Assembly: GCA_040217195.1 (NCBI GenBank)
Contig: JAVJNR010000001.1
Coordinates: forward strand, 64,001 to 128,000
Length of the DNA: 64,000 bases
Direction: 5' to 3'
Source: Leptospiraceae bacterium
GTDB lineage: Bacteria; Spirochaetota; Leptospiria; Leptospirales; Leptonemataceae
In this document: positions 5,127 to 54,026 of the stretch, in pieces
Position numbering within the stretch: position 1 is the first letter of the stretch
How the letters are laid out: the number at the start of each line of letters is the position of its first letter
Notes under the pieces: model-generated
Seen by the model: the letters and a program-made list of their open reading frames with translations, nothing else
Told to the model about the DNA's origin: nothing
The model's database searches: none
Made by a program: the position numbers and the translations under genes

Positions 5127-5275
5127 GCATCTTCGCATCTTTGCATCTTTGCATCTTTGCATCTTTGCATCTTTGCATCTTTGCATCTTTGCATCTTTGC
5201 ATCTTTGCATCTTTGCATCTTTGCATCTTTGCAGCTTTGCAGCTTTGCAGCTTTGCAGCTTTGCAGCTTTGCAGC
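5127..5275. repeat. Intergenic 8-bp tandem repeat: GCATCTTC, (GCATCTTT)x12, (GCAGCTTT)x5, GCAGC
   Basis: Counted directly from the sequence. Confidence 0.97.
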
Positions 5276-49762: not shown

Positions 49763-51052
49763 CTATCTTTGATCCATGGGAATGTAGCTTCTATGCATCT
49801 TCCCTGTGTAGACCTGGCGAGGACGAAAGCTGCGTCTTTCGGTTTCATTTCTCTGTTCCAGCCAATGCGAAAGCCAGCCGGATAATTTTCCGATTACTCG
49901 AATCACGTTATTCATTTCGGACGGTATGCCCAGCAAATGGAATATCAGAGCCGAATAAAAATCCAGATTTGGATACAGCTTCATCTCCTTGAAAAATGGA
50001 TGGCCCATTGTATACTCTTCCACTTCCAGTGCCTTACGAATCAAAGGAGACTTCATTGCATCTGGGTGGTTCTTCCTATACTCATGAAAGATTCTTCGAC
50101 TGATGGTTGCCCGGGGGTCTTCTGGCCCATAGGCAGAATGGCCCAGGCCGTTTGAGATGATTGGTTGGCCTTTCTTAATGAATCGATCGAAATACTGGTC
50201 CGGGCTTTCGGAATTCTGAATCATTTCCCGAAGAAGTACGATGGGCGGTAAATTCGCATCGGATTCTCGAGCGCCCCAGAGAGTCATGATTCCTGCATTG
50301 ATGCAGGCGAACAGGTTTGCCCGGGTGCTTGCCACAAATCGCATGGTAGTGGTTGCTACATTGTATTCATGGTCACTATAAAGAATCAGGATCTGATTCA
50401 AAACACGATCATCAGCATCGCCTACGGTGTGTGCTTCTGCCGGAACTGCAAACATCATATTCAGAAAATTCTTACAATAGGGCAACTCGTCTCGCGGATA
50501 GATCGTGGGTTGACCAACGGACTTTTTGTAGGCCCAGGCAGCCAGGGTTCGCACTTTGGCCAGGAGTCGGGTACGAACATCGACTCCTTTTTGAATATTT
50601 TCTTCAAAGCTTTGCGGATAGTAGCTGGATAGTGCCGTTACCATCGTTGCTAGAATTGCAAGAGGGTGGGCATTGCCAGGAAAGGAATCGAAAAAGTTCC
50701 GCATGGATTCATGGATCATGGAATGCTTGGACAGGGAACGGGAATATTCGTCCAGCTCAGATTGAGTGGGAAGCTCACCTTTGCTTAACAGGTAGGAAGT
50801 TTCCACAAAGCTGGAGTGATTCACCAGATCTTCTACATCGATGCCGCGGTAGAGCAGACGACCCGATTTAGAATCGATCCAGGTAATTGCACTGCGAGCA
50901 ATCGCTGTATTATGTAAATCCGGGTCGTAGGCCGAAAGCCCGGTCTTTTCCTTGAGTTCGCGGACATCAAAAAACTGGCTTCCATCGGAAGCGGTCATTA
51001 GTGGGAAGCTGAGGCTTCCGCCATCATATTTTATTTCTACCTGATCGGCCAT
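49763..51052 (-). CDS. gltA: Citrate synthase family protein (type II-like, divergent active site)
   Basis: SAITWID..GRLLYRG, AHPLA, DHE, GLGH and YPNLDFYS motifs; LWGARESDAN replaces GPxHGGAN. Confidence 0.8.
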   Translation of the reverse strand: MADQVEIKYDGGSLSFPLMTASDGSQFFDVRELKEKTGLSAYDPDLHNTAIARSAITWIDSKSGRLLYRGIDVEDLVNHSSFVETSYLLSKGELPTQSELDEYSRSLSKHSMIHESMRNFFDSFPGNAHPLAILATMVTALSSYYPQSFEENIQKGVDVRTRLLAKVRTLAAWAYKKSVGQPTIYPRDELPYCKNFLNMMFAVPAEAHTVGDADDRVLNQILILYSDHEYNVATTTMRFVASTRANLFACINAGIMTLWGARESDANLPPIVLLREMIQNSESPDQYFDRFIKKGQPIISNGLGHSAYGPEDPRATISRRIFHEYRKNHPDAMKSPLIRKALEVEEYTMGHPFFKEMKLYPNLDFYSALIFHLLGIPSEMNNVIRVIGKLSGWLSHWLEQRNETERRSFRPRQVYTGKMHRSYIPMDQR

Positions 51053-51138
51053 GATTCATGAAACCAGTCAGGAAAGCACACAGGCAAATCTTTTTTAGAG
51101 TGCCCGACCTGCAAAGCCCATCCTGTCCTTTCCAGGTC

Positions 51139-51637
51139 GGGCCAGTGTTGCGGCCCCTGGCCTTGGCAAACTTCCTGTTTGCGGGTGTTCTGTTTACGGA
51201 ACACCGGGTCCATGGACCATCCGAGGTACCCCTTTTGAAAATCCTCCTCCATGGGTTATTAAAAGGGTTGGCAGCTTGACGGACCTTCGGTCCTTGCAAA
51301 CTTCCTGTTTGCGGGTGTTCTGTTTACAGAACACCGGTTCCATGGACCATTCGAGGTACCCCTTTTAAAATCCTCCTCCATGGGTTTTCAAAAAGGGTGG
51401 CAGCTTGAGGGACCTTCGGTGCTTGCAAACTTCCTGTTTGCGGGTGTTCTGTTTACAGAACACCGGGTCCATTGACCATTCGAGGTACCCCTTTTAAAAA
51501 TCCTCCTCCATGGGTATTCAAAAGGGGTGGCAGCTGGACGGACCTTCGGTGCCTGCAAACTTCCTGTTTGCGCGGGTAGGGCCAGTGTTGCGGGCTTCGG
51601 CCGGCGTTTGCTGGTGTTCTGCCGAGGGCAACCTCGG
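51139..51637. repeat. Tandem array of three ~130-bp palindrome-rich units plus the start of a fourth
   Basis: GCAAACTTCCTGTTTGC at 51166, 51296, 51425 and 51555 (periods 130, 129, 130). Flanked by the direct repeat GGGCCAGTGTTGCGG at 51139 and 51579. Confidence 0.95.
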
Positions 51638-51879
51638 TAACTCCGTCAGAGCTACGCAAGATTCCTTTTTGCTGGTGTCAGACTCTGAAAAATAGGAGTA
51701 AAGGAACCAATCTTCAGGGAGCATTGGAAGGATTTTTCGAATGGGAAAACCGGAGTAGAAAACCGGTAACCGGGCATCCTTTGAAGCGGAAGGTATATCG
51801 GGACCGCTGGAGAGCTAGCGGGCTGGTCCCGAGATTAAGAAAAAAGACATTAGATCTCAGGGATTTGACAGGAGATGCG

Positions 51880-52041
51880 ATGACCGTTCAAAGCACCGAA
51901 ACAAAGCAGGAACTGAGGCAAACGCTGCAGGATTTTTACGGAAGGCAGATTCAAAAATAGGCAGATCTGTAGACCAATGCATGCTGCCATGTGGATAGCA
52001 TGCAAAAGTACTCCCGAATAGTGCTCGATGCAGAAAGGTGA
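51880..52041 (+). pseudogene. N-terminal relic of an arsenite-methyltransferase (ArsM/AS3MT)-like gene
   Basis: AGGAG SD; translates as MTVQSTETKQELRQTLQDFYGRQIQK*ADL*TNACCHVDS..., matching the (V)QxYYGxxxxxxxDLxTxACC N-terminal motif, with two TAG stops and truncation. Confidence 0.6.
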
Positions 52042-52052
52042 AAGTTAACGGA

Positions 52053-54026
52053 TCAGGCGGATTTCTTGAATTTCTGTTTTACCCACATTACAAACTCGGA
52101 TGTAGTCATATTGGCATGAAACTGCACTTCTGGTATTCGCTCTTCGCTGGAAGCGGCGGCCCGGGCCAGGGCTTCAGCCTCCTTATCCTGCTCTACAAGA
52201 CTAACTACTCTTAATCCACGATCTTCTCTTTCCAGGTGCTCCTCTGCGGGAAGATGAGCATCCAGTCGAACGTCTATACAGAGAAATTTTCGATTCAGTA
52301 TTCGAACCTGAAGGTTACCGTCCAGAATTCGGATAATCTCCTGAATAATGCCCCATTGAATCCAGAGGCCTTCCAGGTCCGGTAGCTTTCCGGTCAGGAT
52401 TCGTTGCATTCGGCGCATGGTCTTTCGATCATCGTGCTGTAGCAGAAAGCGAAAATGCAGGTTTTCTTCCAGGTCAGACGTTACAATCAAATCAATGTGT
52501 CGAAAGGTTTGAAATCCAGGAAAATCCACCAGGCGAATAACTGCAGAGTGCACAAGATCAAGGCTACTCTCCAGTTCCAGGTTTGGATGCACTTTCACAG
52601 TGCACGTTACTCCGCTTGTGGGAAGCACAGCGCTTAGAAAGTCCCCAACATTCACCGGCACCCGGGCTTCCGGTTCTTCCATTACTTCCAGGCGGCTCAG
52701 TTCAAGTACATCATCCAGGCTCTTTTCAAGCTCGGTTAGATGGAACTGAACACCAGCAGCTTCCTTCCTGGAAAAACCAACCTTTAACTTGGTGCGAACC
52801 TGCTCCGTGATCTCCAGTACAGGCTGCGAGATCGCCAGATGGATATGATGAAAGATCCTGGTACGAAGTTCATTCACAGATTCCATTTTCAGGCGACCCA
52901 GATCCACATCTCTCTGAAGGCCTACAAGCTGAAGTACAATGATTGCAGCTGGAAGTAGTAGAGCTACCACAGAGAAAAAACCCAGCTGTATAGCGCCCGG
53001 AACCCAGAACTGTTGGTTAATGATGGATGCCAGACCATGAATCGTAAAAAACAGGAATCCTGTAGCTATCATGAATCCGCCGGTGGATTGCTTCTCAATG
53101 AACTGGCGAAAGGTAATGTATAGTGCGTAGAAAAAAATCGGAATGTTGATTAGCTTCCAGGATAGCTCTACAATTTCTACGATTGCATTTAATCGTAGAG
53201 CGTAAAGCAACGCGGCCACAAAGGCCACTGCAATTACAGACCACCAGTAAGTTCTATAATGGGCCGGGGTTTCCAATTCGAAGTATCTAATCACAAATGG
53301 ATAGAAAAGAGCAGGGATTAAAATTCCTGAAACTGTACCGGTAATTTCCAGAACTCCATGGATGGGCAATACCCAGTGCAAGATCTCATTTTCGCACATA
53401 AAGTGAAGTGCTAGCACACCATAACCCAATCCGGAAGGCAGGTAGATTCTACCTGCTTCAACGCGAAAATGAAGCAGAATGAAGAAAATACTGGATGAGA
53501 AGAATAGAAGTGAGAAAACAAAGTTTGTAATCTGAGATTTCCAGAATACTTCCCTGGCCAGATCGGTATTCTGCACAGATAGAGGCCCCTGAAGGATACC
53601 TGCCGAGATTTTTCTGGAGCTTTCCAACCGAAGCGCAATGAAATTCAATCCTGGTTTTAGAATACTTCCCGGAATTGTCACTACAAGTGGTCTACCCGGG
53701 CTTTCTGGCCCTCCACCAATGCGAATGCCGTTTACGTACACATCCAGTCTGTCGTAGATGGGCCCGGATAAAAAGCTCAGGTTGTACCGGCCAGGCTCAA
53801 CGGTCAGTTCTTTGCGAAGCCAGATAATGTTACCGGTTTCTTTGAGGGCAGGGGCAACATTTCCTGGCAGCTTTACTACCGGCCAGGCCTCATCGTTGGG
53901 ATCCTCCATTCTGCCTGATGGAATCACTTTCCAGGGCCCCGATAAATCCAGCACCGTTCTGGCCTGCAATGTACCGGTCAGGAGCAATAATGCCACTACA
54001 AGGAAACCTTTGAGGCGCAGAAGCAT
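52053..54026 (-). CDS. Sugar-binding jelly-roll + 7TM sensor with degenerate kinase-like C-terminus
   Basis: LDLSGPWK, WLRK and VYVNGIRIG (GH2-type sugar-binding domain); 7 TM helices; LDDVLELSRLE, but no clear N/G boxes. Confidence 0.75.
   Translation of the reverse strand: MLLRLKGFLVVALLLLTGTLQARTVLDLSGPWKVIPSGRMEDPNDEAWPVVKLPGNVAPALKETGNIIWLRKELTVEPGRYNLSFLSGPIYDRLDVYVNGIRIGGGPESPGRPLVVTIPGSILKPGLNFIALRLESSRKISAGILQGPLSVQNTDLAREVFWKSQITNFVFSLLFFSSSIFFILLHFRVEAGRIYLPSGLGYGVLALHFMCENEILHWVLPIHGVLEITGTVSGILIPALFYPFVIRYFELETPAHYRTYWWSVIAVAFVAALLYALRLNAIVEIVELSWKLINIPIFFYALYITFRQFIEKQSTGGFMIATGFLFFTIHGLASIINQQFWVPGAIQLGFFSVVALLLPAAIIVLQLVGLQRDVDLGRLKMESVNELRTRIFHHIHLAISQPVLEITEQVRTKLKVGFSRKEAAGVQFHLTELEKSLDDVLELSRLEVMEEPEARVPVNVGDFLSAVLPTSGVTCTVKVHPNLELESSLDLVHSAVIRLVDFPGFQTFRHIDLIVTSDLEENLHFRFLLQHDDRKTMRRMQRILTGKLPDLEGLWIQWGIIQEIIRILDGNLQVRILNRKFLCIDVRLDAHLPAEEHLEREDRGLRVVSLVEQDKEAEALARAAASSEERIPEVQFHANMTTSEFVMWVKQKFKKSA

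Follow-up and report, generated by a model that had tools for sequence, protein, structure and literature searches.

What does an array of tandem hairpins do immediately upstream of a citrate-synthase gene in a marine spirochaete? The array lies in a 64,000-nucleotide stretch of DNA (the window), and its GGA-bearing loops fall on the strand that is also the sense strand of the gene. A preliminary description, made from the letters of the window, offered four readings: a CsrA sponge, a CsrA-controlled leader, a cluster of anti-Shine-Dalgarno (anti-SD) small RNAs, or a dispersed REP/BIME-like element carrying such sites. The last of these has held, whereas the dedicated sponge, the gltA leader and the anti-SD cluster have not. 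The array is one tandemly amplified copy of a hairpin element that is dispersed throughout a genus of marine spirochaetes, represented here by a Leptospirales genome (G000; 4.6 Mb, 93.7% complete).

Layout of the array

Tandem-repeat analysis recovers the 130-nt array as claimed, with a period of 130, 3.1 copies and 93% matches over 51166-51572, and with repeat spacings of 130 and 129. The same holds for the GGA tally across 51121-51570 (21 on the minus strand, 7 on the plus), the four minus-strand CAGGAAG hairpins (51166, 51296, 51425 and 51555), the three copies of AUGGAGGAGGA (51242, 51371 and 51501), the placement of ACAGGAUGG at 51118-51126 and the GCAA-loop hairpin at 51622-51637. The count of three units needs amending: three alike units do exist, but 51096-51222 forms an extra, fourth unit, divergent and built on a different long hairpin. 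Similarly, the CTTCGG motif indeed occurs four times, but it belongs to a hairpin of five base pairs and three loop bases and makes no tetraloop. Of the chain of five hairpins ascribed to each unit, two of the three copies have a damaged third small hairpin. Within 450 nt, the minus strand bears eight GGA-bearing hairpin loops, four on the CAGGAAG hairpins and four on longer hairpins, and the array folds better than shuffled sequence on each strand (z -5.9 minus, -8.8 plus). The features of the locus are as follows.

49763..51052, minus: gltA-like gene for a 429-aa homologue of citrate synthase; matches the NCBIfam family at E 2.8e-125 but falls short of its equivalog cut-off
51053..51096, minus: A-tract and -35-like box (51082-51087), probable gltA promoter, 35 nt before the ATG; conserved host stretch
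51096..51100, plus: TAGAG pentamer, sharp element end and probable target site; a T-N-N-A-G pentamer precedes most element ends
51096..51222, plus: unit 0, divergent; long hairpin 51102-51142 (ACAGGAUG on the minus strand), small hairpin, CAGGAAG hairpin 51166-51182 and two more hairpins
51223..51352, plus: unit 1; long hairpin 51229-51267, triloop hairpin 51281-51293, CAGGAAG hairpin 51296-51312, extra hairpins 51314-51335 and 51336-51348
51353..51481, plus: unit 2, module order as in unit 1; 51359-51397, 51410-51422, 51425-51441, 51443-51464, 51465-51477
51482..51572, plus: unit 3, partial; long hairpin 51488-51527, triloop hairpin 51540-51552, CAGGAAG hairpin 51555-51571
51573..51665, plus: degenerate tail, fuzzy far element end; spacer repeat, small hairpin 51592-51602, GCAA-loop hairpin 51622-51637
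51880..52040, plus: broken methyltransferase remnant, divergent from gltA; 18 of 26 residues identical to a G004 protein
52053..54026, minus: upstream gene for a 657-aa membrane protein without a family match

The array also varies among populations. A contig of metagenome run X1, which differs at one position in 701 bases over gltA, joins 51100 directly to a unit-1-type hairpin (45 letters beyond the junction, likeness threshold 88), and unit 0 is therefore absent from that conspecific allele; the allelic joint falls exactly at the end of the TAGAG pentamer. The summed contig depth in X1 is higher over the array than over its flanks, a depth sum that does not equate to copy number. Pieces of the repeat, with variants of their own, occur in contigs of three other marine metagenome runs, X1 among them. 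Elsewhere in the window, positions 5127-5273 hold an 8-base unit repeated 18.4 times with 98% matches.

The gltA gene and its neighbours

The gltA-like gene is a neighbour of the element and lies outside it. The genome encodes two citrate-synthase homologues, 40% identical to each other, and the one beside the array is the more divergent-looking. Its A-tract and -35-like stretch is kept in all six aligned gltA orthologues, array present or absent. Across 1975 upstream regions of the genome, TTG[AC][CA] is most frequent at positions -34 and -35 relative to the ATG (81 and 53 occurrences, compared with about 12), which suggests that many mRNAs of this genome are leaderless; the box between the array and the ATG is, by its sequence and position, probably gltA's own promoter. 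A transcript starting at this box would not contain the array. The position of the box, together with three relatives that lack the array, makes a gltA leader unlikely. On the far side, the methyltransferase gene, broken by stops in the window, is open in G004 and matches Methyltransf_31, and in G001, which has no array at gltA, about 35 nt separate the end of the gene for the 657-aa protein from the promoter-like stretch of gltA. There is probably nothing special about the gltA locus, and the array is probably not a dedicated regulator.

Dispersal through the genome and the genus

A 40-base covariance model of the two-hairpin core (R1), built from 25 rows, has 32 matches in G000, spread over 10 loci, and many of these had served to train it; unit 1, at 54.9 bits, is itself one of the training rows. 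End motifs add three more loci. All six other genomes of the genus contain matches (2-39 per genome), as opposed to three of 30 other genomes of the family, once each, and none of 24 from the sister family. Together with the one filled versus five empty alleles described below, this genus-wide distribution bears out the REP/BIME-like option of the preliminary description. Of the follow-ups that it had proposed, a BLAST search for further copies finds short modules elsewhere in the genome and the full 130-nt unit at the gltA locus only, and the accompanying search for RAYT/TnpA finds no RAYT/Y1 transposase; covariation analysis shows that the stems do covary across copies, and Infernal/Rfam yields no family match, the scan of the gltA region and 15 related loci returning only tRNAs and chance matches. 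Nor did we find a description of the element in the literature on Leptospira/Leptonema intergenic hairpin repeats and CsrA-linked palindromic repeats.

Other searches draw similar boundaries. A loop-descriptor search returned 16 clusters, mostly intergenic and in one strand orientation, compared with 0-5 for five control loops. An exact-pattern scan of 185,579 genomes returned 28 stretches, 23 from the genus and five lacking the hairpin; these five extra-genus stretches are taken as chance. Most loci are common to several species, with the stems rewritten and the loops kept, and many are shared by four to six species; with so many loci old and common, current mobility may be low. Homogenised arrays of the same kind occur at many loci of independently assembled relatives.

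A three-armed subfamily with two GGA/CGA loops is found mostly behind tRNA genes in G000, with up to four or five tandem copies directly behind them. Three-armed relatives exist in one other spirochaete family (two of 150 genomes, including G283). Several observations at the dispersed loci stand on their own. A VapB/PIN toxin-antitoxin pair (L016 353-936, plus strand) lies between three-armed copies; at L030 1500-1660 (G024), a related element begins, by eye, directly behind the 3' end of a candidate tmRNA; and a 44-aa, Lys/Arg-rich open reading frame without a Pfam match (L013 745-876, plus strand) follows the element directly and is conserved in six genomes. G000 also harbours a second, unrelated tandem repeat family, of the GTTCG...CGAAC type with periods of 41-110, which lies upstream of five of the six Rpn/YhgA genes examined.

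L016 985-1722, L017 525-677, L018 354-505, L019 313-419; also L146, L148, L150, L152: three-armed subfamily copies
L027, L037, L047, L060, L074: orthologues of the 44-aa reading frame
G000 C1:37.6k; C4:132k, 241k, 312k, 325k, 552k, 598k; C5:523k, 605k, 613k; C6:25.7k, 28.5k; L140-L144: GTTCG...CGAAC repeats

Stem covariation and a DNA-type signature

The stems of the element covary extensively, and they do so in Watson-Crick terms. An alignment of 134 distinct rows (A2), fitted to a model whose training rows were poor in G-U, has 97.6% of its 1401 cells paired, with 358 double changes and 11 G-U pairs; none of 500 shuffles scores as high, which points to selection on the structure. The 25 unfitted seed rows contain 51 double changes and a single G-U. 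The preliminary description had seen G-U-compatible variation on the plus strand, but family-wide no such excess exists: G-T (11) and A-C (14) are equally rare, so that neither strand displays an RNA-style excess of wobble pairs. Template-switch repair of palindromes can also yield Watson-Crick-only stems.

The small hairpin carries a second signature. It consists of a 5-pair stem and a three-base loop, and the pair flanking the loop covaries, which means that it is not a cUUCGg tetraloop. Read on the GGA strand, its loop (n=134) is GAA in 62 rows, GTA in 23, GGA in 11, GCA in 9 and AAA in 10; it conforms to GNA in 105 of the 134 distinct rows, and the closing pair is C-G in 131 of 132. Among 60 hairpins outside the model matches (a set that omits six loci of mixed orientation, weak or outside the genus, and in which eight are GGA/CGA-loop hairpins), GNA occurs 33 times versus twice for TNC, and the full C-GNA-G arrangement is present in 25, versus 4% of 554 intergenic background loops. 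According to PMC13037366, it is GNA triloops alone that form very stable DNA mini-hairpins, and their RNA versions are much weaker. Watson-Crick covariation, C-GNA-G triloops and insertion without duplication together suggest a mobile element constrained as single-stranded DNA. The three-armed subfamily (alignment A6, six rows) differs, having about nine G-U versus two C-A on the GGA strand; these G-U pairs are RNA-like and run counter to a purely DNA reading.

Ends, insertion events and the search for a mobiliser

The element has one sharp end, a T-N-N-A-G pentamer followed by GTAC or TTAC, and one fuzzy end. The tag at the foot of the first hairpin is GTAC in 49 of 57 cases, TTAC in six, and GTAG and GCAC in one each, counts to be read knowing that the search pattern fixed part of the tag. 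The cleanest view of an insertion comes from G004, where a 129-nt copy replaces 27 nt inside an Rpn/YhgA gene. One of six alleles is filled; the five empty alleles, three of them within G004, are open across the insertion site. At the junction the TGGAG pentamer is host sequence and there is no target duplication, and since 27 host bases were lost, the far end is not a clean transposase junction. The gltA site is likewise polymorphic: G000, G003 and G004 each carry a mosaic of their own there, and the other three genomes (G001, G002 and G005) have an empty site.

We searched for an enzyme that could move the element. The RAYT/Y1 transposase domain Y1_Tnp is absent from all six genus genomes scanned (77-94% complete) and gives one weak match among 41 family genomes; the search for reverse transcriptase (RVT_1) found none, and that for Y2_Tnp had no match, its control being silent as well. 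A Pfam scan of 44 of the 92 called neighbour reading frames revealed no transposase except Rpn/YhgA, and this candidate is not accepted because the Rpn genes are tied more to the GTTCG...CGAAC repeats (five of six) than to the element (three of six). Four tyrosine recombinases were found, none adjoining element copies. A likeness of the element end to group II intron domain VI, to Helitron/IS91 ends or to attC sites is conceivable. Separately, a 3.6-kb segment adjoins an element end at G000 C10:419.9k-423.5k (L135, L136); it is shared by G000 and G004, in part at 99% identity, and absent from G002, a pattern that makes a recent transfer possible.

A possible link to CsrA

On the minus strand the loops follow the pattern C-A-(N)-GGA-N-G and come in forms of five and of six bases; natural variants across the family include CAGGAAG, CAUGGAGG and CACGAUG. 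The CsrA motif as given in PMC4005645 is A(N)GGAX on a C-G pair, with core bases that cannot be substituted. On this likeness of sequence, the element loops are plausible CsrA sites. In the second hairpin, 34 of the 111 loops with seven bases have CGA in place of GGA, as do 14 of 50 loops of the long hairpin. The third base of those 111 loops is G in 75, C in 34 and T in two, with no A, and this near absence of T and A implies that C is tolerated and not a product of decay, something that strict CsrA rules disallow.

The host has one csrA (89 bits) with fliW adjoining, and fliW is present in six of seven genomes of the genus. Leptospira CsrA is described as binding GGA hairpins, with FliW as its expected antagonist (PMC8668096). 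In G000, two of the four flagellin leaders carry AAGGAUG hairpins (C1:74065, minus; C3:203283, plus), upstream of the ribosome-binding site in the classic layout of a CsrA target. A further line of evidence concerns an analogue, the TwoAYGGAY family, and not the element itself: among 150 Clostridia (drawn from set G066-G218, 17 candidates scored per genome), TwoAYGGAY occurs in 17 of 50 csrA-positive but one of 100 csrA-negative genomes, the exception being a sub-threshold match. The Fisher p of 1e-8 is overstated, as kin are not independent and genome size is not controlled. In Spirochaetota (n=150), csrA is present in 147 genomes and model R2 matches two, and the co-occurrence comparison has no power there.

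Position relative to genes is less telling. Of 61 clusters, 48 have their sharp end directed at a gene start (p 1e-4; three more clusters have no flank). Once orthologues are merged, however, 12 of 18 do so against a background of 0.556 (p 0.24), and the bias toward gene starts is not significant; the merging was done by hand and dropped three other-genus clusters, one weak match, contig-broken duplicates and an in-gene copy. The genes downstream of element loci are functionally mixed. At several other loci the element end abuts the ribosome-binding site, so that control in cis is possible there.

Proposed explanation and alternatives

The unit of the element comprises a long hairpin with an A(N)GGAN or ACGAN loop, a C-GNA-G triloop hairpin, a second GGA/CGA hairpin and variable extras. 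It occupies at least 10 loci per genome; one of its ends is sharp and the other fuzzy, and it inserts beside a TNGAG-type pentamer without target duplication, its modules being swapped or lost within species. We propose that an enzyme acting in trans, possibly of the HUH type by analogy with IS200/IS605, would move or copy the element in the form of folded single-stranded DNA, and that local slippage or recombination would build the arrays. The GGA loops would be kept through CsrA binding whenever read-through or a promoter close by leads to transcription of the GGA strand. The family would then scatter CsrA sites as a distributed, low-level decoy, and where its end abuts a ribosome-binding site it might become a cis-acting CsrA operator; at gltA, where the promoter-like box of the gene itself lies downstream of the array, the array probably does not serve as a leader. 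Taken jointly, this picture of a tandemly amplified, non-autonomous mobile element of the TwoAYGGAY/REP-BIME type, moved as single-stranded DNA and with loops kept by CsrA, seems to us evenly poised between right and wrong.

The loops could instead be read as DNA by a protein that mobilises or binds the element, in which case their resemblance to CsrA sites would be incidental. This alternative, which is rather unlikely but deserves serious weight, would account for a third loop base that is G or C in defiance of strict CsrA rules, for the GNA triloops and wobble-free stems as DNA-type features, for the GGA strand being antisense to the tRNA at all three tRNA loci, and for the lack of a significant bias toward gene starts after merging. 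It sits less easily with the loops themselves, whose invariant C-A, optional N, GA, free N and closing G follow the grammar of Csr/Rsm sites, and with the near confinement of the TwoAYGGAY analogue to csrA-positive Clostridia. A dedicated CsrB/RsmZ-like sponge transcribed from the minus strand of the gltA-side locus is unlikely. Such a role has been proposed for TwoAYGGAY (PMC4333381; bioRxiv 10.64898/2026.09.22.753630), and eight GGA loops on one strand in a genome with csrA would suit it, but no Rfam CsrB/CsrC/Rsm family matches at E up to 10, a simple consensus scan of the minus strand found no promoter- or terminator-like sites bounding the array, and the site is empty in three of six genomes and differently built in the three that are filled. 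The adjoining fliW, whose product is the expected antagonist of CsrA in Leptospira (PMC8668096), argues in the same direction.

We regard a CsrA-controlled leader of the citrate-synthase gene as very unlikely. Although the GGA strand and the gltA sense strand coincide, most clusters (48 of 61) face gene starts when orthologues are left unmerged and several ends abut ribosome-binding sites, the -35-like box intervenes between array and gene, 35 nt before the ATG and at the genome-wide peak position; no Shine-Dalgarno GGAG precedes the ATG, the array is absent in G001, G002 and G005, and the downstream genes elsewhere are mixed. Little credence at all is due to a plus-strand cluster of cuckoo/CcsR-like anti-SD small RNAs. 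The plus strand folds better (z -8.8 versus -5.9) and carries three UCCUCCUCC loops and one GCAA tetraloop, but the UCCUCCUCC loop is unchanged in run X4, shorter by two bases in the populations of runs X1 and X3, and replaced by a CCUCCAUGG or CCUCCUGG type loop at the orthologous gltA site in G003 and G004, so that the cuckoo-like reading rests on an unfixed allele. Its UUCG loops, moreover, are triloops, and there is neither a wobble excess nor an Rfam match. An assembly artefact multiplying one unit is just as improbable: no contig of the three DNA runs covers the entire array, but its units differ from one another by about 7%, and alike arrays stand at many loci in relatives assembled independently.

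If the mobile-element reading with CsrA-kept loops is extended, the element may represent a class bearing two codes on the same strand, one for single-stranded DNA (GNA mini-hairpins and a five-base transposase target) and one for CsrA-binding RNA loops, a tentative idea that could be right but probably is not. Were it true, CsrA operators and decoys would be spread through FliW-type genomes (spirochaetes and Clostridia), in which sponge RNAs have yet to be validated, with TwoAYGGAY as one branch of the class; repeats of that type have been proposed as CsrA decoys outside Gammaproteobacteria since 2014 and recently as mobile-like. The interest lies in the family and not in the gltA locus. The family offers experimental handles, namely a defined end, a target pentamer, a filled/empty allele pair and a DNA mini-hairpin signature, its natural GGA and CGA loop variants make the CsrA link directly testable, and the Clostridia survey provides a first look at the co-occurrence of TwoAYGGAY and csrA.

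Comparison with known systems

Cuckoo/CcsR sRNAs have conserved CCUCCUCCC loops, whereas the array loop varies within the species and between orthologous sites, and no Rfam family matches it. The CsrB/CsrC/RsmX/Y/Z RNAs (as described in PMC4005645) resemble the array in their many A(N)GGAX loops on C-G-closed stems of one strand; the element differs in having no Rfam match and no bounded transcription unit seen, in being multi-locus and polymorphic, and in the presence of FliW. With IS200/IS605 elements, as PMC13565253 presents them, it shares the lack of terminal inverted repeats and of target duplication, subterminal DNA hairpins and insertion beside a 4-5-base target. It differs in lacking tnpA and tnpB, in its single sharp end and in the 27-base loss at the one clean insertion.

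REPINs are mobilised by RAYT. REP/BIME sequences are, like the element, intergenic and palindromic, assembled into modular mosaics and tandem clusters, and marked by a four-base tag at the foot of the first hairpin; the tag described for them is GTAG or CGTC (PMC3733652), whereas that of the element is mostly GTAC and rarely GTAG. The element further differs in having no RAYT/Y1 gene, in its conserved GGA/CGA loops and in occupying 10-14 loci rather than hundreds.

TwoAYGGAY (Rfam RF01731; PMC2864571; PMC4333381; bioRxiv 10.64898/2026.09.22.753630), proposed as CsrA-binding in PMC4333381 and as mobile-like in bioRxiv 10.64898/2026.09.22.753630, is matched by RF01731 neither in the window nor at 15 related loci, the best hit in G000, elsewhere in the genome, scoring 19.5 bits against a gathering cut-off of 43. 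The element loops, A(N)GGAN or ACGAN, are related to AYGGAY without following its strict consensus, and CGA, a point of difference, occupies about 30% of them. Two hairpins on a common basal stem are absent from the window units and present in the three-armed subfamily. Tandem G-A pairs, judged by eye, belong to the canonical long arm at other loci and are missing from the window copies. The gltA subfamily also adds C-GNA-G triloop hairpins and head-to-tail arrays. The likenesses comprise dispersal, variable copy number, paired hairpins, CsrA-type five- and six-base loops, a proposed mobile-like expansion and proposed binding by Csr/Rsm proteins, and the three-armed subfamily (A6) has the same layout, a tandem G-A loop in one arm being part of the TwoAYGGAY description. 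Falling outside each named family by its membership tests, the element is a TwoAYGGAY/REP-BIME-like variant.
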